A DNA stretch of 60,002 bases, taken from positions 1-60,002 of the forward strand of contig JAAYKC010000018.1 of the NCBI GenBank assembly GCA_012522645.1, in the 5' to 3' direction. The notes under the pieces were generated by a model. The model searched no databases. It saw nothing but the letters and a program-made list of their open reading frames with translations, and was not told the DNA's origin. This DNA is from Thermoplasmatales archaeon. GTDB lineage: Archaea > Thermoplasmatota > Thermoplasmata > Methanomassiliicoccales > Methanomethylophilaceae. A program made the translations under genes and the position numbers. Below, piece after piece: positions 31,242-45,421 of this stretch; the first letter of the stretch is position 1, and each line of letters opens with the position of its first letter.

Positions 31242-32600
31242 TCATACGCAGAATGTTTTCCTGCGATACATCGTGGTCCCGTCCTTTGCTGTGACGTTGA
31301 ACAGGCAGAAGGGTATCAGTTTACCGTCTAACGTCACCACGTGTATGCAGCAACGCTCCCATCTTTCAGTTTCACCGGTCCATGCGTCCTGGAAAGCCAT
31401 CGCGGATACTGTCAGATAATGTGTCTTGGCCCTCTTGACAAAGGATTTCCACGAATTATCCTCACTGTTGGAACTTCCGTCCATCGTCTCCTCTATCACC
31501 TTCCAGTATGTGGAGAGTTCCGTTCTGGTCTTCTCGGCAACATTGTCCGTCTTCTTGGGCGGACCCAGGGCCATCGTTGTCAACGGGAACAGACTGCCGT
31601 CGGGCAGGACCACCGAAAGGGACTTCAGATCACAGTGCACATTCGCACATGAGGTGGGCATGAAATTATCCGCCCTGAGCATGCCCTTGGTCTGCTTCTC
31701 GATCGCCTTGGTGAGATCTGACAGATAGACCCTGCTCTCGTCCTTCGGATCCTCGGGATATCTCCCGAAATGGGCTATGGGTTGGAAATGCACCCCCTTA
31801 ACAACAGGGACATTCTCTCCTGCGAACTTGATGATCTCGCCCACGGAATCGAGATTTATATCCGGAGATACTGTGACCACCAGGGTTATCCCTACGCCGC
31901 CCACTTCCCTGCAGTTCTCTATCGCTTTCTTCTTGACGTCAAAAAGGGGCTTTCCCCGGGTCTTCATGTATATCTCGTCATTCAGACCGTCGAATTGCAT
32001 GTAGAAATCATCGACACCGGCATCCCTGAGCGCTCTCAGATATTCTATGTCCCCGGATATGCGCAGGGCATTGGTATTCACCTCAACATGCTCGATGCCC
32101 ATCTCCTTGGCCATCCTGACTATCTCCGGCAGATCGTCCCTGACCGTGGGCTCTCCTCCGGACAGTTGTATGCAGCGCGGGCTGTCGACGTAATCGACTA
32201 TGGTCTTGAACATGCCTCTTATCGTTTCCATGTCCGGATGGAAATCATACCCGCACCCATTGGCTGTGGCGAAACATATGGGACAGTTCAGATTGCAGCG
32301 GTTGGTCACCTCAACGACCACGAGGCAGGTATGCTGCAGATGCTTTTCGCAAAGACCGCATTCTTGGGGACAGTCCTTTATCTCGCCCACGGCTCTCTTC
32401 TTAGGCGTCTTCGGAACGGCTGCGAATTCGTAAAGATCCTTGTAATTCTTCGCACCGGACCATATCTTTACCTTCCAGTCTCCGTGTTCGGGACACGTCT
32501 TGACGATGAAGATGTCGTCGCCCTCTTCCACTTTATCCGCATGTATGGTCTTCAGGCACACAGGGCACAGGGCATTGGTCTCGCCTATCTTATTAGCCAT
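31242..32600 (-). CDS. Radical SAM protein with N-terminal zinc ribbon; candidate tetraether lipid synthase (Tes / GDGT-MAS, MJ0619-family-like)
   Basis: CNLNCPICFA radical-SAM CxxxCxxC motif. N-terminal CPVCLKTIHADKVEEGDDIFIVKTCPEHG and CPQECGLCEKHLQHTC auxiliary Cys motifs. The specific function is inferred from architecture and lipid-gene proximity only. Confidence 0.6.
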   Translation of the reverse strand: MANKIGETNALCPVCLKTIHADKVEEGDDIFIVKTCPEHGDWKVKIWSGAKNYKDLYEFAAVPKTPKKRAVGEIKDCPQECGLCEKHLQHTCLVVVEVTNRCNLNCPICFATANGCGYDFHPDMETIRGMFKTIVDYVDSPRCIQLSGGEPTVRDDLPEIVRMAKEMGIEHVEVNTNALRISGDIEYLRALRDAGVDDFYMQFDGLNDEIYMKTRGKPLFDVKKKAIENCREVGGVGITLVVTVSPDINLDSVGEIIKFAGENVPVVKGVHFQPIAHFGRYPEDPKDESRVYLSDLTKAIEKQTKGMLRADNFMPTSCANVHCDLKSLSVVLPDGSLFPLTTMALGPPKKTDNVAEKTRTELSTYWKVIEETMDGSSNSEDNSWKSFVKRAKTHYLTVSAMAFQDAWTGETERWERCCIHVVTLDGKLIPFCLFNVTAKDGTTMYRRKTFCV

Positions 32601-33143: not shown

Positions 33144-34268
33144 TCACCACGTTCCGTAGGTACCGAAGTCCCTAGCAGCTCTGGTCATAGCGAGGAGGTT
33201 ACCCGGTATCGTGTACGGGGGCGTCTCGCATGTGTTGCCCAGAATGAACCCTTTCTTGGCGTCGCGGCCGGCAAGGAGACATTCCTTGGAGCGCTCGTAC
33301 ACCGCCTTCGGGTTCGGGTTGATCATCAGCTTCGTGTCGACGGATCCCATACAGGTCGCGACATCCTGGAACTCCTGCTTCAGCAGTTCGGACGGGAAGT
33401 CGATACGGCCCTTGTATCCGACATGTATAACCGTGAACGGAGACCATACCAGGTTGTTCCTGAAGACCTTATAGGAGGTCTCGTGGTTACCGCACAGGTG
33501 GTAGAATATCTGAGGTCCGGCTCCCTTTCTGAAGCACTGGTCCACGTAGTGGCCCATCTTCTTGGCACCGTACTCCTCTACCTGCTCGTCCGCGAATATA
33601 TCGTTGTTCGCCAGAACGGATCCGACGATCAGCATTGCCATACCGTACTTGTCAGACAAAGCGTCCGCACCGTTTATGGAGGTCTCAACGAAGGTATCGA
33701 CCAGCTTGTGCGCCAGGTCAGGCTCGGTGAAGGTCCACATGATGAAGTTCTCGACTCCGATCAGCTCTGCGGATGCTCCGACAAGGTCGAACCCGTATGA
33801 TATGGGAACCAGCGTGTGAGGCAGGTTCTTCTGCACATAGTCATACAGGTTGTAGAACAGAGGTATGGTCGATCCCTTCAGAAGGTCTTCCTTCTCGATG
33901 GGTTTCAGGTTCTCAATGCCCTCTGCGGTCGGCTCATATATCGGCCCTGTGGGGATCGGCGGGAGCGTGTCCTTGTATACCAGAGTCATGCCCAGTTCTC
34001 TTACCCACGGAAGAGAGAAGAACCAGTGCGTGACAGGCAGCAGGTCAAACAGCTCGGCGATGTATCCGACACAGTGTATTCCTAGTTCCGGTTTCTCGTA
34101 GAAGTCCCTGATCGTGAACCCGCAGTGCACGGCAGCGTTCGACAGCATGATAGGATCAACGTCGATTCTGTCGTGGTAGTTGTCCACAAAGGGGCTTGCG
34201 AATCTCTTGGCGGCATTTGCGTGCCATCCGTTGAGATCGTTTGTAGGGAATAATTCTTCGTAGCCCAT
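33144..34268 (-). CDS. Uroporphyrinogen-decarboxylase (URO-D) family methyltransferase, MtaA/MtbA-like
   Basis: YHLCGNHE (H-x-C zinc ligands) and distal NTCE, in a 374-aa URO-D-like layout. Confidence 0.65.
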   Translation of the reverse strand: MGYEELFPTNDLNGWHANAAKRFASPFVDNYHDRIDVDPIMLSNAAVHCGFTIRDFYEKPELGIHCVGYIAELFDLLPVTHWFFSLPWVRELGMTLVYKDTLPPIPTGPIYEPTAEGIENLKPIEKEDLLKGSTIPLFYNLYDYVQKNLPHTLVPISYGFDLVGASAELIGVENFIMWTFTEPDLAHKLVDTFVETSINGADALSDKYGMAMLIVGSVLANNDIFADEQVEEYGAKKMGHYVDQCFRKGAGPQIFYHLCGNHETSYKVFRNNLVWSPFTVIHVGYKGRIDFPSELLKQEFQDVATCMGSVDTKLMINPNPKAVYERSKECLLAGRDAKKGFILGNTCETPPYTIPGNLLAMTRAARDFGTYGTW

Positions 34269-36624: not shown

Positions 36625-36775
36625 CGCCGGGCGAAGAGGATGTCACGAAGGCCCCGGAGGATGTCCGTTCTGAAGACGATGCCGATCCTTGTTGGATGCG
36701 GCCCCTGGTATCGGTGAAGAGTCAGGACAGAAAGGATATATGATTCCATTCGATTAGGTGGACTCGGAGACGGGG

Positions 36776-37681
36776 ATGAAGAACTGGGAGTTCGACAAGG
36801 TAAGAGACAAGACTGTGAAGTTGGACAACGCCCTGGCTGATATGATGGGGCTCGTGGACGGCGGATACATCTACAGCACGCTTTTCGAGTACGATAACGA
36901 GAGCCCGAAGAAATACGAGCTCATCCTGTCCACTTATCCTCAGGAGAACTACAGGACGCTTACTAACATCACGATGTACATCCAGGATGTGCCGGGCTCC
37001 AGCGCCCAGGCGGCCAGATTCCTGGGGGACAGGGACATCAACATACTGAACTCCATCTCCCTGGAGGGCATATCCGATACGATCATCATATGGAAGATGC
37101 TCGTGGACCTTAACTTCGCAGGAGAAGTGAGCATTCTCACAGAGAAGTTCGCCGAGCTGAAGGAGAGGAATGACCCCTCTGTCTCCAAGATAGATCACAT
37201 ACAGATCAAGCCTGCCGATATAGGCCGCGTCTTCAGGACCGAAGGGCGTTCCGACAAGATAGAGATCAGGAGAGGAGTCCCGATCACCCTCAAGGATAAT
37301 ACCTATGACCTCTCGGTCGAGTACAGCGACATCTTCGAGGACTTCGAGGGAGAATCCGTCATGGTGGCAGCGGACTACGCCTCCTGGATCGTCTCCATCT
37401 CATTCTTCAAAGGAGAGACGAAACTGGTGAGGATAGGTCTGGAGATACCCGACTGCCCCGGATCCATAACCCAAGTACTGGATTGGATAGCGACAAAGAA
37501 CGTCAATCTCATCTCGGTGTTCAGCAAGATAAAGATCTGCTATCAGACGATGACATTGGACCTGGTGGCCGATTTCAGCGGCTGCAGGATGTCGATGGAC
37601 GAGTTCAGGATCAGCCTCGAGGATGCCCTGGAGGACATGAACGGGATCTTCGTCCTGACCCAGTATGAGGAGTTGAAATGA
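36776..37681 (+). CDS. Double ACT-domain protein, first gene of the acs operon
   Basis: Two ACT-like segments (ITMYIQDVPGSSAQAARFLGDRDINILNS; IGLEIPDCPGSITQVLDWIATKNVNLISVF). ATG at 36776 preceded by GGAG (the track gives GTG at 36758). ATGA overlap with acsB. Confidence 0.55.
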   Translation: MKNWEFDKVRDKTVKLDNALADMMGLVDGGYIYSTLFEYDNESPKKYELILSTYPQENYRTLTNITMYIQDVPGSSAQAARFLGDRDINILNSISLEGISDTIIIWKMLVDLNFAGEVSILTEKFAELKERNDPSVSKIDHIQIKPADIGRVFRTEGRSDKIEIRRGVPITLKDNTYDLSVEYSDIFEDFEGESVMVAADYASWIVSISFFKGETKLVRIGLEIPDCPGSITQVLDWIATKNVNLISVFSKIKICYQTMTLDLVADFSGCRMSMDEFRISLEDALEDMNGIFVLTQYEELK

Positions 37682-39891
37682 GCGTTCCCCCGACAGTTGA
37701 CGGGACGGCTTCCAAATACGGCATTGATTCCGCAGAGGAGATATCCTTCCTGCTGGAGAAGGTGAAGGCACCCGACGTCCCGTCCTTACTGGCACTTGCA
37801 GCAGAAGGGTCTGATGCCCTGGTGTCACTGGCCAAAAGATGCGTCAGGGCGGCCTCTGCGAAGCACGGAGACAACACCATTCTGGAATATCCCGAGACCG
37901 GGTACGGCGTGCCTTCCTTGTACGCCTGGAAGGGCATAGAGCGTCTGACCCTGAGGGATGCGACAGAGCTGTTGGATTCTCTTGATCCTGCGAAAAATGT
38001 TACTCTGGAAGACGGCCTGGCGGCAGGGGAGAATGCGATGTACGCAGCGGACATCCTCGAAGCGATAACCTATATCGGTGCCGAAGAGGCGAACCGGGAC
38101 GGTTTCATACCCGACCGCGTGATAAGGGAACTGGGGCTCAGTCTCGTGGACGAGACCATTCCGGGAGCTGCGGTTTTCTTGGGCGATACGGAGAGCGGAA
38201 ACGTGGCCCGGATGGCCAAGGACATACAGTCAAAAGGCATGCTGGGTCTTGTGACGTCCGGTACGCTTTCACCCGGATATGCAGAGAAGATGAGAGAGAA
38301 CGACATCGCCATGGGGCTTGACAGGATGATGTATCCTCTCGGCAACTTCACGGGAATAGTGCATGCCCTCAATTTCGATGTACGTGCGGCCCTCACTTTC
38401 GGAGGGGTCACGTCCGGCGACAGGGAAAAATTGTCATCGTATCTGGCCAAAAGACCAAAGGTCTTCGTGATCAAGACCGGAGATCTCAGCAGACTGGAGG
38501 CCTCTATCGCCTTCGCGGCCCTCATGCACAGTGCGCCCATAATCACAGACTCCGATCTGCCGGAGGTGCCCGGTGCCGTGAAGAGCACCGAAGACCTGGA
38601 GAGAATGGTCCAGGTGGGCATAGAGGAAAGAGGGATAATCGTAACACTGGAACCTCTGGATCTGCCTGTCGGCTACGGTCCGTCCTTCGAGGGAGAAGTA
38701 CTGAGAAAGCCTGATACATACATGGAAGCGGGAGGAGGCAGGAGCACAGCCTTCGAGTTGCTCGTCTCCAGGAACGAGGGCGAGATAGAGGACGGCAGGA
38801 TCCTCCTCATAGGCAAGGACCTGGACAAGATATCTGAGGGCTCCGTCATCCCTCTGGCTATGATCGTAGAAGTCTACGGCAGGGATATGCAGAGTGATCT
38901 GGAGCCTGTCATGGAACGCAGATTCCACAGCGGCATAAACTTCGCTGAGGGCATCTGGCACACCGGCCAGAGGAACTCGAATTGGGTCAGGATAAGCAAG
39001 AAGGCAGCGGCGAAGGGCTTCCGCATGACAGATCTGGGCAAGATGCTGATGCATACAGTCAGAAAAGAGTTCGGCAAGATCGTCACACGCATCCAGGTAA
39101 CTGTAATTACTGACCCTGACGAGATAGAGCGCCGCCTTCCAGCTGCCAAGGAAATCTATGGTGCCAGAGATGAAAGGATGAGAGGCCTCAAAGATGATCT
39201 GGTAGACTGTTTCTACACCTGCGCAATGTGCCAGTCCTTCGCTCCAGGGCACATATGCATCATATCACCGGAAAGACTGGGTCTTTGCGGTGCGATTAAC
39301 TGGCTGGATGCGAAGGCGGGCAATGAACTGGCCCCTTCCGGCCCCAATATGCCGGTAAGCATGGGGGTCACACTGGATAGTGCCAAAGGGGAATGGTCCG
39401 GAGTCAATGAGGTCGTGTCATCCGCATCATCCGGTACCGTTGAGAGGATGTGCCTCTACAGCCTGATGGACGCTCCGATGACCTCCTGCGGCTGCTTTGA
39501 GGTCATAATCGCGATGACCGTGGACATGCAGTCCGTGGTGCTCGTTGACAGGGATTATCTCGGCATGACGCCGATCGGCATGAAATTCTCCACCCTGGCC
39601 GGCTCCATAGGCGGGGGAAGGCAGACCCCCGGGTTCATGGGCGTCGGCAGGAAGTACATAACCAGTGAGAAGTTCATAGCCGCCGAGGGTGGGCTGCCCA
39701 GAGTCTCCTGGATGCCCAAGCGGCTCAAGGAGATGCTCGGCGAGGAGCTTGGTAAAAGGTGCCAGGATCTGGGAATTCCAGACCTCATGGACAAGATCGC
39801 AGACGAAACAATAACAGATGACGCCGAGGGGCTCATGGCGTGGATGGCAGAGGTTGATCATCCCGCCCTCCATATGGAGCCTCTCCTGTAG
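37678..39891 (+). CDS. acsB: Acetyl-CoA synthase, bacterial full-length AcsB type (A-cluster subunit)
   Basis: CAMCQSFAPGHICIISPERLGLCG matches the C-x2-C-x8-C-x9-C [4Fe-4S] ligand pattern. SCGCFE is the Cys-Gly-Cys Ni-binding motif. 737 aa including the about 300-aa N-terminal domain, colinear with Moorella-type AcsB. Ends in TAG. Confidence 0.92.
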   Translation: MSVPPTVDGTASKYGIDSAEEISFLLEKVKAPDVPSLLALAAEGSDALVSLAKRCVRAASAKHGDNTILEYPETGYGVPSLYAWKGIERLTLRDATELLDSLDPAKNVTLEDGLAAGENAMYAADILEAITYIGAEEANRDGFIPDRVIRELGLSLVDETIPGAAVFLGDTESGNVARMAKDIQSKGMLGLVTSGTLSPGYAEKMRENDIAMGLDRMMYPLGNFTGIVHALNFDVRAALTFGGVTSGDREKLSSYLAKRPKVFVIKTGDLSRLEASIAFAALMHSAPIITDSDLPEVPGAVKSTEDLERMVQVGIEERGIIVTLEPLDLPVGYGPSFEGEVLRKPDTYMEAGGGRSTAFELLVSRNEGEIEDGRILLIGKDLDKISEGSVIPLAMIVEVYGRDMQSDLEPVMERRFHSGINFAEGIWHTGQRNSNWVRISKKAAAKGFRMTDLGKMLMHTVRKEFGKIVTRIQVTVITDPDEIERRLPAAKEIYGARDERMRGLKDDLVDCFYTCAMCQSFAPGHICIISPERLGLCGAINWLDAKAGNELAPSGPNMPVSMGVTLDSAKGEWSGVNEVVSSASSGTVERMCLYSLMDAPMTSCGCFEVIIAMTVDMQSVVLVDRDYLGMTPIGMKFSTLAGSIGGGRQTPGFMGVGRKYITSEKFIAAEGGLPRVSWMPKRLKEMLGEELGKRCQDLGIPDLMDKIADETITDDAEGLMAWMAEVDHPALHMEPLL

Positions 39892-39899
39892 GTGATGAA

Positions 39900-40823
39900 A
39901 TGGCAGAGATACCATCAGTGAAGGAGAAATACACAGGTAAGATAGAAGAGATAGTATTCGGCAACTGTGTCGCCGGAGGCGCGGACGGAATGCCTTTCCT
40001 CTCCTTCGAGAATACGCTGAAGAGACGCCCGATGATAGCGGGCGAGGTGGTCGATGATCTGACCGACTATCCTGAAATCGCTGCCGAGATGTTCGACGGC
40101 CGCCAGAAGGACCCGGTGGAATGGGCCAATATGTGGAAGGAGATCGGTGCAGATATGATCTGCATGAGGTTCCCGGGCGCAGCCCCCGACAAGAAGGGCA
40201 CAACACCGGATGCGGCCGTCAGCATAGTGAAGAGCATCGCTGAGAAGACCGGGCTGCCGATCATGGTCACTGGATGCGGCATCCCTGATATCGATAATAA
40301 ACTGGCGGAAGCAGTCGGAGGTGCCATGAAGGGCACCAAGATCATATTGGGAAAGACAGAGGAGCACGAGTACAAGAAAATCTCCGCGGTCTGCGTATCC
40401 AACGGGCATGCGGTCCTGGCCTTCTCGAATCTGGATATAAACCTGGCAAAGCAGATGAATATCCTGCTCACTGATTTCGGTGTCGGGAGGGACGGCATAA
40501 CAATGGACCCCCTCATGGCAGCCCTGGGTATGGGGCTCGATTACTCTTACTCCGTGAATGAGAGGATCAGGCTGGCGGCGCTGTCAGGGGACAGGATGCT
40601 GCAGGTCCCCATGGTGTGCGACTGCACGGGAGCCTGGGACGTCGGGGATGCGGTGAGCACCGACGATCCGTCCCTTGGCGATGCGAAGCACAGGGTCGCC
40701 TGGTGGGAGGCCATGACCGCCCTTGCCGCAATGCTCTCCGGAGCGGACATACTCGTAATGAGGGGGCCCGGAGCCGCTGATATGGCCAGGGTGTACGCCG
40801 AGGAACTGACGGGGGTGTCCTGA
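39900..40823 (+). CDS. acsD: Corrinoid iron-sulfur protein small subunit (AcsD / CdhD-like)
   Basis: Colinear with AcsD (…PIMVTGCG…, NLDINLAKQMNILL, SVNERIRLAALSGDRMLQVPMVC). 307 aa. Confidence 0.85.
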   Translation: MAEIPSVKEKYTGKIEEIVFGNCVAGGADGMPFLSFENTLKRRPMIAGEVVDDLTDYPEIAAEMFDGRQKDPVEWANMWKEIGADMICMRFPGAAPDKKGTTPDAAVSIVKSIAEKTGLPIMVTGCGIPDIDNKLAEAVGGAMKGTKIILGKTEEHEYKKISAVCVSNGHAVLAFSNLDINLAKQMNILLTDFGVGRDGITMDPLMAALGMGLDYSYSVNERIRLAALSGDRMLQVPMVCDCTGAWDVGDAVSTDDPSLGDAKHRVAWWEAMTALAAMLSGADILVMRGPGAADMARVYAEELTGVS

Positions 40824-42151
40824 TGGCCACCGCCATAGAATACTTCAAATTGCTCCCGAAGACCAACTGCAAGGACTGCGGACAGCCCACATGCCTCGCC
40901 TTCGCCATGCTGTTGGCCAACCAGAAGGCGAAGATAGAGGACTGCCCGCACGTGAGCAAGGAATCTAAGGCTGTTCTCAGCGAATCCGCGGCACCCCTCA
41001 TGCGCACTGTCAGCGTCGGAACGGGGGGATCGGCAGTGGAGATGGGCGGGGAGACAGTGATCTACCGCCATGAGCGCCGTTTCGTCAATCAGACCGCATA
41101 CGCTCTGACCGTCTGCGATGACCTGGAGGGGAAGGCTCTGGAGGACAGAGTGAATACCGTTTCCGCTCTCAGCTTCGAACGTGTCGGGATGATCTTCGCA
41201 GCGGACATGATATCGATCAAGAACGTGAGCGGCGATCCTTCCAGATTCGCCGAGACCGCCAAGGCTGTATCCGCTCTTTGGAAGAAGCCCTTTATCCTGG
41301 AAACCGATGATGTATCTGCCATGGAGAAGGCTCTCGAAGCCGTGGGAAAACTGCGCCCCATGATTTACGGTGCAGGGCCCGGCAATCTGGACCGGATGGC
41401 TGCTCTGGCCAAGAAGCACGGCTGCACCCTGGGCATCAAAGCCGACGGTCCGGAATCCGCAGCCGATCTCTCTGTGAAGGCGAAGGCCGCCGGGGCGGAG
41501 GATCTGGTACTTGATCTGGGATGCCCCAATCTCAAGAGATGCCTGGAGGATCAGACCGTTGCAAGACGTGCGGCGGTGAAGAAGAAGTTCAAGCCGCTGG
41601 GATATCCCCTCATGAACAGAGTGGGGTGCGGGGAGTACGCCGTGGCGATCGCGGCGGTGTCCACTATGAAGTACGGCAGCCTCGTCATATTCGATGATCT
41701 GAAGAACTACGAGGCCCTGCCCCTCATGACCCTGAGGCAGAACATCTACACAGACCCGCAGGTCCCGATACAGGTCAAGCAGGCCCTTTACCCCATAGGC
41801 AACCCGGGAGAGCATTCGCCGGTGATGTTCACGACCAATTTCTCCCTTACCTACTTCACGGTCAGGGCGGACATAGAGAAGAGCAGGATACCGGTCTGGC
41901 TGCAGATAGTCAACACAGAGGGGCTGTCGGTCCTGACGGCCTATGCTGCAGGGAAATTCGAGCCTGAGAAGGTAGCCGAAGCGTTCGAGGAATCAGGCGT
42001 GCTGTCGAAAACGAACGGTCCGGTCGTGGTGCCGGGGCTCGTAGCACGCATGTCCGGCAAACTGGAAGAGGCCATCGGCAGGAAGGTCATCGTAGGAACC
42101 AATGAGTCAAAGCACATCCCGAAGCACCTGAAGGAGATCACTTCCCAGTAA
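40823..42151 (+). CDS. acsC: Corrinoid iron-sulfur protein large subunit (AcsC / CdhE-like)
   Basis: N-terminal LPKTNCKDCGQPTCLAFAMLLANQKAKIEDCP [4Fe-4S] motif. 442 aa. 1-nt overlap with acsD. Confidence 0.9.
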   Translation: MATAIEYFKLLPKTNCKDCGQPTCLAFAMLLANQKAKIEDCPHVSKESKAVLSESAAPLMRTVSVGTGGSAVEMGGETVIYRHERRFVNQTAYALTVCDDLEGKALEDRVNTVSALSFERVGMIFAADMISIKNVSGDPSRFAETAKAVSALWKKPFILETDDVSAMEKALEAVGKLRPMIYGAGPGNLDRMAALAKKHGCTLGIKADGPESAADLSVKAKAAGAEDLVLDLGCPNLKRCLEDQTVARRAAVKKKFKPLGYPLMNRVGCGEYAVAIAAVSTMKYGSLVIFDDLKNYEALPLMTLRQNIYTDPQVPIQVKQALYPIGNPGEHSPVMFTTNFSLTYFTVRADIEKSRIPVWLQIVNTEGLSVLTAYAAGKFEPEKVAEAFEESGVLSKTNGPVVVPGLVARMSGKLEEAIGRKVIVGTNESKHIPKHLKEITSQ

Positions 42152-42878
42152 GACTCTCTGCCAGGACCGCAAGGGCCTTCCCGAACTCCGTGTCGGACGG
42201 AATATCAAGGCACTCGCTCTCCACAGCGGACCTGACGATGTACTCGTCATGGGGCATAAGGAAGACATCCTCAAAGCCCAATTCTGCGGCGTAGCTCAGA
42301 AGGCTGTCCGCAGGACCGGCCACGTTGTTTATCACCAGGATCCTCCGCCCGGCATCAATGCTGACCTCGTCGACTATGCCGGACAGCCGGGATGCTGTCT
42401 TGATGCCTGTCCGTGTCGGATCGGAAACGAATACTATGGCGTCAGTCCGGGGAAGCGTCTTCCTGGACAGATGCTCCATGCCCGCTTCATTATCTATCAC
42501 CACATTATCGTACACGGGTATGATTTTGGCAAGGCAGTCCTTCATCACCCCGTTCACGAAGCAGTAGCATCCCTGGCCCTGAGGCCTTCCCATGACCAGC
42601 AGATCCACATTCCCTTCTTCGGATATTATCTGACGGACATGGTTCGCCACATACTCCTGCTTGCTTATGCCCGCAGGAACTATGTCCGGGTTGTTGACGA
42701 TGTCATTCCTGAGCTCCCCCACGGAGCCCAGCGGTTCCATTCCCAGCTTATCGCAGAGATTCGAGTTGGGGTCCGCATCCACTGCAAGGACGACCCCGTC
42801 CCTGGAGAGCAGTCTGATGAGCTGAGAGGAGATCGTGCTCTTGCCCACGCCGCCCTTGCCCGCCAGAGCGATTATCAA
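42138..42878 (-). CDS. cooC: CooC/AcsF-type Ni-insertion accessory ATPase
   Basis: (M)IIALAGKGGVGKSTISS deviant Walker A. The TTG start at 42878 is preceded by GGGGAGG and overlaps the upstream TGA. The track's 307-aa version overlaps the upstream gene. Confidence 0.8.
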   Translation of the reverse strand: MIIALAGKGGVGKSTISSQLIRLLSRDGVVLAVDADPNSNLCDKLGMEPLGSVGELRNDIVNNPDIVPAGISKQEYVANHVRQIISEEGNVDLLVMGRPQGQGCYCFVNGVMKDCLAKIIPVYDNVVIDNEAGMEHLSRKTLPRTDAIVFVSDPTRTGIKTASRLSGIVDEVSIDAGRRILVINNVAGPADSLLSYAAELGFEDVFLMPHDEYIVRSAVESECLDIPSDTEFGKALAVLAESLTGK

Positions 42879-43885
42879 AACCCGTACCTCCCCTTCATCT
42901 CCCTGGATACCCCGCTGAGGAGATCCAGTACAGAGTCCACCGCTTCCGGTGTCAGCCCTTCGAGGCCGCACTGCGGCGTGATCAGGGACCTGCGGGCTAT
43001 CAGCCCTTTGTCCAGGCCCTTGCTCTGGAGCTTCTCCATCACATTCTCCAGCTTGGCACATAGGCTCCTGACGGTCTCCCTGCTCAGATCCTCCTCTCTG
43101 TTGGGGATCAACCCCCAGGAAAGGGCGCCTCCTCTGTCAATGAACGCCTTCAGATCGTCAATGTATAGTGCCAGATTGTCTGAATATGAGTAAGCGTCGA
43201 AGCTCAGGATGTCCAATTTGGTCCTCAGGACCATGCCCCAGTCTGTGTTGCCGCAGCAGTGCACTGCCCGATAGCCTTCCACTCCGTCCATGGCCTCATT
43301 GATCCAATTCACCGCATCCTCTTCGCTTATCTGAGCGAAAGGTGAGCCCAGCAGAGAAAGGGATGGTTCATCGAAGAAGATTATGACACAGTCATTGGCC
43401 TTCATGAGCCTGTGCGCCTGCCATCTGGCTGTCATACAGACCGTCTTCCTGACTATCTCCCCGTAGGTCTCGTCGTATATCACCGAGCGTCCGTTGACAT
43501 CCTGGATCTGCAGACCTTCGCTTATGGGCCCGGTGACCTGCCCCTTAACCGCCCTGAACCGGGAGATGTCGTTGCCCAAAAGGCCGTATAACCCTGCGTG
43601 GCACTTCTCCGGAGGTTTGAAGAACTCCTCATTCTCGAATACTATCGCTTCGTATATTTCGGTCGGATCATAATCATCCAGATTCACGAAGACCTTCTCC
43701 CCCTCTGTCCTCAGCCCGGGAAGGTGCGCTCCGGTCTGCACGTACATGCTCTCCCGGATCCCCCTGGAAAGCTGCGGCCAGGAAGGGCAGTCCACCCTTC
43801 CGTCCAATATCCTGTCAAGCGCATCCTCCGGCTCATAAAAGGGCATAGACCCTATCAAAGTGGTAGCGAACTTCCAATCCATCAT
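42875..43885 (-). CDS. Core-MetE-like (cobalamin-independent methionine synthase catalytic-domain family) Zn methyltransferase
   Basis: ATTLIGSMP N-terminus. VHCCGNTDW (H-x-C) and LITPQCGLEG (PxCGL) zinc-ligand motifs of the MetE C-terminal domain. 336 aa, single domain. Confidence 0.65.
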   Translation of the reverse strand: MMDWKFATTLIGSMPFYEPEDALDRILDGRVDCPSWPQLSRGIRESMYVQTGAHLPGLRTEGEKVFVNLDDYDPTEIYEAIVFENEEFFKPPEKCHAGLYGLLGNDISRFRAVKGQVTGPISEGLQIQDVNGRSVIYDETYGEIVRKTVCMTARWQAHRLMKANDCVIIFFDEPSLSLLGSPFAQISEEDAVNWINEAMDGVEGYRAVHCCGNTDWGMVLRTKLDILSFDAYSYSDNLALYIDDLKAFIDRGGALSWGLIPNREEDLSRETVRSLCAKLENVMEKLQSKGLDKGLIARRSLITPQCGLEGLTPEAVDSVLDLLSGVSREMKGRYGF

Positions 43886-43906: not shown

Positions 43907-45421
43907 TTAAAAATGCACCGAGGGGAACTGATCCCTTTCCGTGTGCGGAAGGAACTGCGCCGAGGTGTACTCATCATAGAATGCGGGGTCGGAACTGAGA
44001 TCCAGATATGTCGCATTGCAAGATATCGCATCTGTCCTGGTCCGGACGCTCTCCGACAGCAGATAATTGACCGCTCCGCCGAGGGATGCATTACCCAGAT
44101 AGACATATTTTGACCTGTCCACATCCGGGAAGAGCCCGATGGTGATCGCTGAGTCCAGGTTTATGAAGTTCCCGAAGCCGCCCGCTATGTAGATCTTATC
44201 CAGATCTCCGAATCCTATCCCCATGCTCCTTACCAGCGTCCTTGCAGCAGAGTAGATCGCAGCCTTGGTGAGCATTATGTCCATTATCTCAGACTGTGTT
44301 ATGACAACACCCGGTGCGATTGTGAATACCCCGTCCTCCGCATCCGCCCTCTCCGTGAAGTTCCCGCGCCTGTCGATCATGCCGGCGGCGAACAGCTGAG
44401 CCACAAGGTCGATTATCCCTGAACCGCATATGCCCTTCGGCTCCCCGCCTCCTATCACAGTGTATCTCACCTTGCAGTCTTCCACCTTCACACCGTCTAT
44501 CGCACCCAACTGTGCCAGCATACCCGATGTTGTCGTGGATCCCTCGAATGCGGGACCGGCTGATGACGAGCATACGAGCATCATGTCCCTGTTGCCCAGA
44601 GCCACCTCGCCGTTGGTGCCCACGTCTATCAGGAGGGACATTCCTTCAGAGAGATCCATTCCTGCCACGGTTATGTCACTCACCACGTCCCCTCCGACAT
44701 ACGATGATATGGCCGGCATCGTGTACACCAGGGCATCCGGGCTGACATCCAGTCCGCTCCCTGATCCCGTGGTCTCGGCCTTGACGAATACCGGTATGTA
44801 AGGAGGTTCCCTTATGGGTGAGGGGTCCACACCCAGGAACAAGTGCGTCATTGCCGTATTTCCTGACACGCAGACCGCATTTATGTTCTGTGTTCCCTCA
44901 GTGAAGGTATACAGGAGATCGTTTATCGTGCTCAGCACAAGACCTTTGAGCTCCGATGCCCCGCCATCGGCAGAGTACTGCATCCTGGCCAGAACATCCT
45001 CCCCTCGGTCCCTTTGCATATTGACGCCGGCGGCACGATACAGTGCCAGATGATCGTCCATATCCACGACCTCGATTGCCACGGTGGTCGTCCCGATATC
45101 TATGGCCAGACCGTGCCCGCTTGTAACAGAGGTCTTGTCATCCACGGGTATCCTCCTGTGATCCGTGATCCCCACGACCTTGTTCTTCTCTGCGGCCTTC
45201 TGGGTCATTACCTCGATGTCCTCTTCGACCGGAGTCTGACAGGCGAGAACCCTTTTCTTGATCTCACTGCCTATGATGACGGAGCACTTACCGCACCTCC
45301 CCTGACCCCCGCAGGGGAGGTTTATGGTCACTCCCGCCGCTGCCGCAGCCTGCGCTATGGTTGTCCCGGGCTCCACCTCAGCAGTCTTGTTCTCACTGAC
45401 GAATCTGACTCGAAAGGTCAT
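43907..45421 (-). CDS. Reductive activator of corrinoid Fe-S protein (RACo type: 2Fe-2S ferredoxin + ASKHA ATPase)
   Basis: N-terminal LPCGGQGRCGKCSVII...LACQT plant-type 2Fe-2S motif followed by a large actin-fold/DUF4445-like region. ATG at 45421; the track ORF extends to 45610. Confidence 0.8.
   Translation of the reverse strand: MTFRVRFVSENKTAEVEPGTTIAQAAAAAGVTINLPCGGQGRCGKCSVIIGSEIKKRVLACQTPVEEDIEVMTQKAAEKNKVVGITDHRRIPVDDKTSVTSGHGLAIDIGTTTVAIEVVDMDDHLALYRAAGVNMQRDRGEDVLARMQYSADGGASELKGLVLSTINDLLYTFTEGTQNINAVCVSGNTAMTHLFLGVDPSPIREPPYIPVFVKAETTGSGSGLDVSPDALVYTMPAISSYVGGDVVSDITVAGMDLSEGMSLLIDVGTNGEVALGNRDMMLVCSSSAGPAFEGSTTTSGMLAQLGAIDGVKVEDCKVRYTVIGGGEPKGICGSGIIDLVAQLFAAGMIDRRGNFTERADAEDGVFTIAPGVVITQSEIMDIMLTKAAIYSAARTLVRSMGIGFGDLDKIYIAGGFGNFINLDSAITIGLFPDVDRSKYVYLGNASLGGAVNYLLSESVRTRTDAISCNATYLDLSSDPAFYDEYTSAQFLPHTERDQFPSVHF

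Follow-up and report, generated by a model that had tools for sequence, protein, structure and literature searches.

The closest described enzyme is the core methionine synthase (core-MetE) of Dehalococcoides mccartyi. The protein of strain CBDB1 (cbdbA481, 343 aa) has been purified, and its zinc ligands are His215, Cys217, Asp236 and Cys312 (Deobald et al. 2020, PMC7005905). His122, which lies in an HxxG motif, was proposed to be the lower ligand of the cobalt, and the gene shares an operon with those for SAM synthetase and SAH hydrolase (PMC7005905). The D. mccartyi enzyme methylates homocysteine from methylcobalamin and not from methyl-tetrahydrofolate; the assays used free methylcobalamin only, with a Km of ~240 μM (PMC7005905). 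Cleavage of acetyl-CoA has been proposed as the source of the methyl group in Dehalococcoides (PMC7005905 and the labelling study cited there).

Price, Deutschbauer and Arkin (2021, PMC7857596) defined the MesB family, with a phmmer score of at least 173 bits to DET0516 of D. mccartyi 195 (Q3Z939) as the threshold for membership. The key residues of DET0516 are H, C, D and C at positions 214, 216, 235 and 311, and S, W and D at positions 15, 69 and 177 (PMC7857596). Essentially all proteomes with MesB encode AcsC/AcsD; in methanogens mesB clusters with acsCD, and the methylated corrinoid iron–sulfur protein (methyl-CoFeSP; CFeSP below) is the predicted donor (PMC7857596). The Methanomassiliicoccales are stated to have MesB only. 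The related MesA is predicted to use MtrA, a protein that the Methanomassiliicoccales lack (PMC7857596). Published work thus already covers this kind of enzyme, its occurrence in the order and the prediction of its donor.

The locus described here lies in a 60,002-nucleotide stretch of a Methanomassiliicoccales genome (the window). Its features are as follows, in positions of the window:

37678..39891, (+) strand: acsB, bacterial-type acetyl-CoA synthase (ACS), 737 aa, with a CODH_A_N domain
39900..40823, (+) strand: acsD, corrinoid iron–sulfur protein small subunit (Pfam CdhD)
40823..42151, (+) strand: acsC, corrinoid iron–sulfur protein large subunit (Pfam FeS and CdhD, 330 bits)
42138..42878, (-) strand: cooC/acsF-type P-loop Ni-insertion ATPase, 246 aa, TTG start
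42875..43885, (-) strand: mesB, predicted 336-aa core methionine synthase (MesB family), ATG start
42970-42968, (-) strand: predicted zinc ligand C306 of MesB
43198-43196, (-) strand: predicted zinc ligand D230 of MesB
43255-43253, (-) strand: predicted zinc ligand C211 of MesB
43261-43259, (-) strand: predicted zinc ligand H209 of MesB
43372-43370, (-) strand: predicted homocysteine ligand D172 of MesB
43849-43847, (-) strand: predicted homocysteine ligand S13 of MesB
43907..45421, (-) strand: RACo/AcsV-type reductive activase of corrinoid proteins, 504 aa, ATG at 45421

The genes on the (-) strand form a three-gene operon in the order RACo, mesB, cooC. The activase, whose longest open reading frame extends to 45610, has the Pfam domains Fer2, Raco_middle and RACo_C_ter and scores 420 bits to the NCBIfam model AcsV. 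It ends at 43907, so that 21 nt separate it from mesB. The TGA stop of mesB (42877-42875) shares four nucleotides (TTGA) with the TTG start of cooC at 42878, which is preceded by GGGGAGG. The position between a corrinoid activase and cooC, and the translational coupling to cooC, were both part of an earlier sequence-only reading of this DNA, and both hold: RACo lies 21 nt upstream, cooC follows directly, and the gene order and the stop/start overlap are repeated in relatives of 84%, 60% and 57% identity (loci L005-L009). The operon is convergent with one on the (+) strand that encodes an ACT-domain protein, AcsB, AcsD and AcsC, so arranged that acsC faces cooC. Both acsC and acsD are within 1 kb of mesB, and the genome thus encodes the CoFeSP expected of an organism with MesB. 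Among metatranscriptomes, three studies (wastewater, bioreactor and digester) contributed four libraries in which short contigs match parts of cooC, mesB and RACo exactly. These contigs are a weak hint of transcription, being low in depth, possibly derived from carried-over DNA and in no case spanning two genes.

The 336-aa open reading frame had been singled out for two motifs, VHCCGN and PQCGL, which are found in the translation at residues 208–213 and 304–308. The protein scores 254.7 bits in phmmer against a 342-aa Dehalococcoidales homolog (locus L097), well within the MesB family; the residues of this homolog agree with the published numbering of Q3Z939, and it serves here as the DET0516-type reference. 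The score to the cbdbA481-like protein of locus L096 is 248.2 bits. A 343-aa Dehalococcoidales homolog has H122, H215, C217, D236 and C312 exactly as published for cbdbA481, and BLASTP aligns our protein to it with 40% identity over 310 residues (236 bits, E 2e-80). Residues H209, C211, D230 and C306 align with 214, 216, 235 and 311 of DET0516. The MetE-type zinc ligands noted earlier are therefore H209, C211 and C306, together with D230 at the position of the MetE glutamate. The counterparts of S13 and D172 in DET0516 are S15 and D177, the equivalents of Ser433 and Asp599 of MetE. The third homocysteine position is W69 in DET0516 and F66 in this protein; it varies across the family, as already reported (PMC7857596). 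Every MesB feature that can be read from sequence is present, and those of canonical MetE, MesA and MtaA/MtbA are not. Together with the predicted fold, these alignments support the assignment of the protein as a MesB-family core methionine synthase of the Dehalococcoides type, in line with the ‘core-MetE’ type that the sequence-only reading had proposed. That such enzymes take methyl groups from methylcobalamin rather than methyl-folate is borne out for the characterized members (PMC7005905) and is predicted for the present one.

General family models recognize the protein poorly. A Pfam scan returned no family at E<=1, including Meth_synt_1 and PF01208, and a sequence search of PDB chains gave no meaningful match. 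Against NCBIfam it reached 32.3 bits to PRK00957, the MesA model (cut-off 258), and 12.1 bits to MtbA (E 0.076; cut-off 600). Both values are below the cut-offs, and the protein is placed on the MesB/Dehalococcoides side. Homologs are nevertheless abundant, with 3770 in a 90%-clustered database and 1583 cluster representatives at 50% identity. In an alignment of 45 diverse members, the invariant or nearly invariant positions are IGS-x-P (12-15), WPQLP, G119-P120, D172-E173-P174, H209, C211, W216, D230, G258, P261 and C306-G307. The four zinc ligands are invariant (45/45), and the homocysteine ligands D172 and S13 are kept in 43 and 42 of the 45. Residue 116 is Gln, which is the family rule (39/45). 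A MesB-like subfamily without zinc ligands exists and has been proposed to be non-catalytic in Chloroflexales (PMC7857596). A non-catalytic role of this kind is extremely improbable here, given that all four ligands are intact and conserved throughout the alignment.

The AlphaFold2 model (pLDDT 96.7, pTM 0.94) is a single barrel. It agrees with the earlier remark that the folate-binding N-terminal duplicate is missing: the protein is one domain of 336 aa, with one barrel in the model and no Meth_synt_1 match. In a Foldseek search of the PDB, the best 29 matches were all B12-independent methionine synthases of the MetE or MesD type (E 2.5e-10 to 1e-6), with uroporphyrinogen decarboxylases and a Methanosarcina MtaA-like methyltransferase ranked below them. 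A scan of species-representative genomes found the closest relatives within the Methanomassiliicoccales (46–84% identity), followed by Dehalococcoidia and other Chloroflexota (37–42% over the full length), and then by Elusimicrobia, a Deltaproteobacteria MAG and Deferrimicrobiaceae. The Methanomassiliicoccales sequences form a separate clade in a quick IQ-TREE tree with SH-aLRT support only.

The host genome (1.34 Mb, 171 contigs, 91.75% complete) carries HcyBio, the methanogen-type gene for homocysteine biosynthesis (504 bits), and a methionine synthase is therefore expected. Profile searches of this 91.75% complete genome gave no match to PF01717 or PF02574, the families of MetE and MetH. 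The only two pterin-binding proteins are a dihydropteroate synthase and an AcsE homolog, so no MetH was found. A canonical methionine synthase elsewhere, which the sequence-only reading had named as evidence against itself, is thus not seen in the assembly. No real match to PF01717 occurs in any of the 151 genomes of the order; partial matches of 18–28 bits were rejected as MetE, being MtaA/MtbA-like proteins with HICGDT motifs. AdoHcyase was not found in the host genome (~92% complete); at this completeness nothing is concluded from it. The AcsE homolog (290 bits) adjoins a MetF-like gene on contig C34, and with its discovery the idea that MesB replaces AcsE as a methyl-pterin:CFeSP methyltransferase was dropped. 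CODH was found neither in this genome (91.75% complete) nor in its 95% complete congener, and a lone Prismane match in the host genome was rejected as CODH and is a hybrid-cluster protein (hydroxylamine reductase). The same search found CODH in 0/9, 0/3 and 0/4 genomes of three other genera with both MesB and ACS (g6, g3 and g20, respectively). In g6, a genome of 99% completeness encodes both MesB and ACS, with no AcsE and no CODH found.

The acceptor of the methyl group deserves separate consideration. The H-x-C...C zinc motif and the barrel fold are common to MtaA and MtbA, and there is the weak NCBIfam match to MtbA (E 0.076). The protein might accordingly act as a methyl-corrinoid:thiol methyltransferase whose acceptor is coenzyme M or some other thiol, and such an enzyme could also run in reverse, loading CFeSP from methyl-CoM for acetyl-CoA synthesis. 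The nearest relatives outside the order, however, belong to Dehalococcoidia and other bacteria. Collectively, these are not known as users of coenzyme M. The conserved homocysteine ligands S13 and D172 and the ranking of MetE above MtaA-like chains in the structural search also stand against this function. The host owns two full-length MtaA/MtbA-like genes, on contigs C75 and C18, so MesB is not needed for methylation of coenzyme M. For the reverse route, the failure to find CODH makes acetyl-CoA synthesis from CO2 unlikely here. We consider a coenzyme M or other thiol methyltransferase very unlikely. The earlier caveat that coenzyme M could be the acceptor has accordingly lost most of its force, in view of a mostly bacterial family, conserved homocysteine ligands and separate MtaA/MtbA-like enzymes; homocysteine is the probable acceptor.

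The gene neighborhood is conserved well beyond this genome. RACo-mesB-cooC lies beside acsB/D/C in those Methanomassiliicoccales loci that are long enough to show it. A colinear acsB-acsD-acsC-RACo-mesB-cooC arrangement is present in the Deltaproteobacteria MAG, a Deferrimicrobiaceae MAG and two further bacterial MAGs. In two Elusimicrobia MAGs, cooC is directly 3′ of mesB, and in one of them ACS is ~8 kb away. The Dehalococcoidales loci instead group mesB with genes for an MTA-phosphorylase-like protein, for AdoHcyase and for SAM synthetase, with no acs genes among them. As mesB in Dehalococcoidia groups with SAM-cycle genes, its synteny with acs is lineage-specific.

MesB and ACS (PF03598) also occur together. 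Both are present in 78 and both absent in 58 of the 151 genomes of the order; five have MesB only and ten ACS only, which makes 15/151 discordant. Since the genomes are related and not independent, these counts are read as a pattern rather than as statistics. All ten genomes with ACS only belong to one genus (g7) and have a divergent ACS. The joint loss of MesB and ACS, which is near-complete, took place within the Methanomethylophilaceae. Four of the five genomes with MesB only have CFeSP genes, and in one genus (g19) acsC and acsD adjoin mesB and AcsE is present, with no ACS found. From these exceptions, the constant partner of MesB looks like CFeSP rather than ACS. What this analysis establishes is the family to which the protein belongs, its ligands and fold, and the synteny and co-occurrence.

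The order also offers other corrinoid proteins as donors. Methyl-reducing Methanomassiliicoccales carry several methyl-corrinoid proteins, and MesB could be a methionine synthase charged from methanol or methylamines by a methanogenic corrinoid protein of the MtaC/MtmC/MtbC type. The CFeSP neighborhood would then reflect shared use of RACo or co-regulation only. Some MesB paralogs may bind other corrinoid proteins (PMC7857596), and free methylcobalamin is accepted in vitro (PMC7005905), both of which fit such a donor. Yet the 58 genomes without ACS belong to the same methyl-reducing order and are also without MesB, a joint loss that would not be expected if methanogenic proteins supplied the methyl group. 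The g19 mesB, moreover, adjoins acsC and acsD although no ACS was found, and bacteria that are not methanogens share the acs-RACo-mesB-cooC order. We judge a methanogenic donor unlikely.

Likely, in our assessment, is that the protein is a MesB-family core methionine synthase fed, most probably, by the methylated AcsCD encoded next to it, with RACo re-reducing AcsCD. In the proposed mechanism, zinc bound by H209, C211, D230 and C306 in the single (β/α)8 barrel would activate the thiol of L-homocysteine, which S13 and D172 would hold in place. The thiolate would accept a methyl cation from the methyl-Co(III) corrinoid, yielding methionine and Co(I). The physiological donor would most likely be methylated AcsCD, and RACo, as a predicted co-transcribed partner, would re-reduce AcsCD after its oxidation to Co(II). 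The sequence-only reading had predicted methylated CFeSP as the donor; this fits the conserved synteny, the co-occurrence with ACS and CFeSP across the 151 genomes and the finding of no other methionine synthase. Weighing against it are Gln116 at the position of His122, the proposed lower cobalt ligand, and the lineage-specific character of the acs synteny.

We infer two routes by which AcsCD could be methylated. In the first, AcsB would split acetyl-CoA and hand its methyl group to AcsCD; with no CODH, CO would be released. Given that no CODH was found, this is the most plausible direction for AcsB. In the second, the AcsE/MetF pair on C34 would supply the methyl group from methyl-tetrahydrofolate, which the location of AcsE beside the MetF-like gene makes a second possible source. 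Both routes may exist within the order, as g6 has a genome with ACS and no AcsE found, and g19 has AcsE and no ACS found. A further proposal is possible, although we consider it less likely than not. In lineages where no CODH was found (this genus and g6), the set AcsB-AcsCD-RACo-CooC-MesB may have been retained solely to supply the methyl group of methionine by cleavage of acetyl-CoA, as proposed for Dehalococcoides, and not for carbon fixation, and the 58 genomes that lack MesB and ACS would be those of methionine auxotrophs.

Four observations appear to go modestly beyond Price et al. The first is the translationally coupled RACo-mesB-cooC operon, whose synteny is conserved throughout the order and in members of several phyla of bacteria. 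The second is the near-complete co-loss of MesB and ACS within the Methanomethylophilaceae. The third is that many genomes with MesB and ACS are without CODH. The fourth is a genus with MesB, CFeSP and AcsE in which no ACS was found. The assignment supplies the correct name for a gene recorded as ‘hypothetical protein’ (NCBI) and ‘cobalamin-independent methionine synthase II’ (JGI). It adds comparative support for the predicted direct hand-over of a methyl group from the Wood–Ljungdahl corrinoid protein to homocysteine. The RACo/cooC operon and the MesB genus without ACS point to CFeSP, not ACS, as the constant partner, and the distribution of mesB hints at which Methanomassiliicoccales are able to synthesize methionine themselves.

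The comparison with known systems can be summarized by enzyme. With the D. mccartyi core-MetE the protein shares its length (336 versus 342–343 aa), an identical spacing of the H-C-D-C ligands and the lack of a folate-binding domain; both genomes encode AcsC/AcsD, with no other methionine synthase found. The two differ in residue 116, which is Gln here and corresponds to His122 in the D. mccartyi enzyme, and in gene context, as mesB in Dehalococcoidia is with MTA phosphorylase-like, SAH hydrolase and SAM synthetase genes and here is beside acsBDC. AcsE and MetF are present in this host, whereas D. mccartyi is without both.

Tandem-repeat MetE (PF01717 and PF08267) has the same barrel fold, zinc–thiolate chemistry and C-terminal PxCGL motif. 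In contrast to it, the protein is half the size, has no N-terminal folate repeat, has Asp in place of Glu as a zinc ligand and has no Pfam match. MesA (the MTH775 type, PRK00957) is a core methionine synthase of one domain as well, with methylcobalamin as a methyl donor in vitro, but the score of 32.3 bits falls far short of its curated cut-off of 258 bits. MtaA and MtbA, of the URO-D family, are also barrels with an H-x-C...C zinc site, and corrinoid proteins are their methyl donors. Their thiol substrate is another one, their rank in the fold comparison is lower, and this genome has separate genes for them.

If the proposal holds, the system would parallel MetH, with AcsE as the folate module, AcsCD as the corrinoid module, RACo as the reactivation module and MesB as the homocysteine module. 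The modules would here be separate proteins, with a homocysteine module that adopts the fold of MetE instead of that of PF02574. Reactivation by RACo would be driven by ATP and ferredoxin, and would not depend on SAM as it does in MetH.

The genome holding the window encodes an acetyl-CoA synthase (ACS), preceded by a gene that is also found 5' of acsB in Methanomethylophilaceae relatives:

36758-37681, + strand, ACT-domain protein of approximately 300 aa, translationally coupled to acsB
37678-39891, acsB

Conceivably, the ACT-domain protein senses amino acids and regulates the module. A whole-genome search gave no catalytic subunit of CO dehydrogenase (CODH), and none was found in the congener G105; the sole Prismane match in the window's genome, on contig C160, is a hybrid-cluster protein. 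Among genomes with both ACS and MesB, CODH was likewise found in 0/9 of genus g6, 0/3 of g3 and 0/4 of g20. In the congener G147, a separate contig carries a stand-alone CooS.

In families f3, f4 and f6 of the order, the TIGR01702 (CODH) and PF03598 (ACS) matches share a single open frame of approximately 1360-1390 aa, which suggests fused CODH-ACS genes; examples, among others, are:

G024:C1:1619776-1623042, shared CODH/ACS frame
G010:C8:63947-67219, shared CODH/ACS frame
G015:C40:83450-86698, shared CODH/ACS frame

Families f1 and f7, unlike these three, have a stand-alone AcsB of approximately 730 aa.

In genus g19, mesB adjoins acsC and acsD, an AcsE homolog is present, and the PF03598 search gave no ACS match:

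G005:C20:264706-268535, mesB/acsC/acsD
G020:C1:18908-22730, mesB/acsC/acsD

Judged by gene content, this genus is a putative case of a corrinoid iron-sulfur protein/MesB pair without acetyl-CoA synthase. Its AcsE matches contain one in-frame TGA. Ten genomes of genus g7 (Methanomethylophilaceae) carry a divergent ACS-like gene (e.g. G054:C1:620900-621331; ORFs of approximately 650-730 aa) and MesB was found in none of the ten; the gene scores 104-126 bits against PF03598 in nine genomes and 35 bits in one, compared with 190-230 elsewhere.

In the window's genome, contig C34 carries a convergent, overlapping gene pair (L002:504-1415, +, and 1405-2184, -), distant from the acs cluster. The pair codes for an AcsE homolog, which scores 290 bits with PRK07535, and for a MetF-like methylenetetrahydrofolate reductase. 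Two further genes lie close together in the window:

31242-32600, - strand, radical SAM protein
33144-34268, - strand, atypical URO-D family protein

The former matches the NCBIfam model 'radical SAM (seleno)protein TrsS' over cut-off (519 bits), above the tetraether lipid synthase Tes model (389 bits); the latter reaches just 40-57 bits with MtaA/CmuA models.

In one Candidatus Methanarcanum MAG, a Peptidase_C69 gene (615 aa, L008:6062-7909) separates RACo from mesB, and the mesB-cooC coupling is retained despite this insertion.

His122 of D. mccartyi core-MetE was put forward as the lower cobalt ligand and said to be conserved in Dehalococcoidia (Deobald et al., PMC7005905). The position is Cys in one Dehalococcoidaceae MAG (L053), and Gln in 39 of the 45 aligned MesB homologs.
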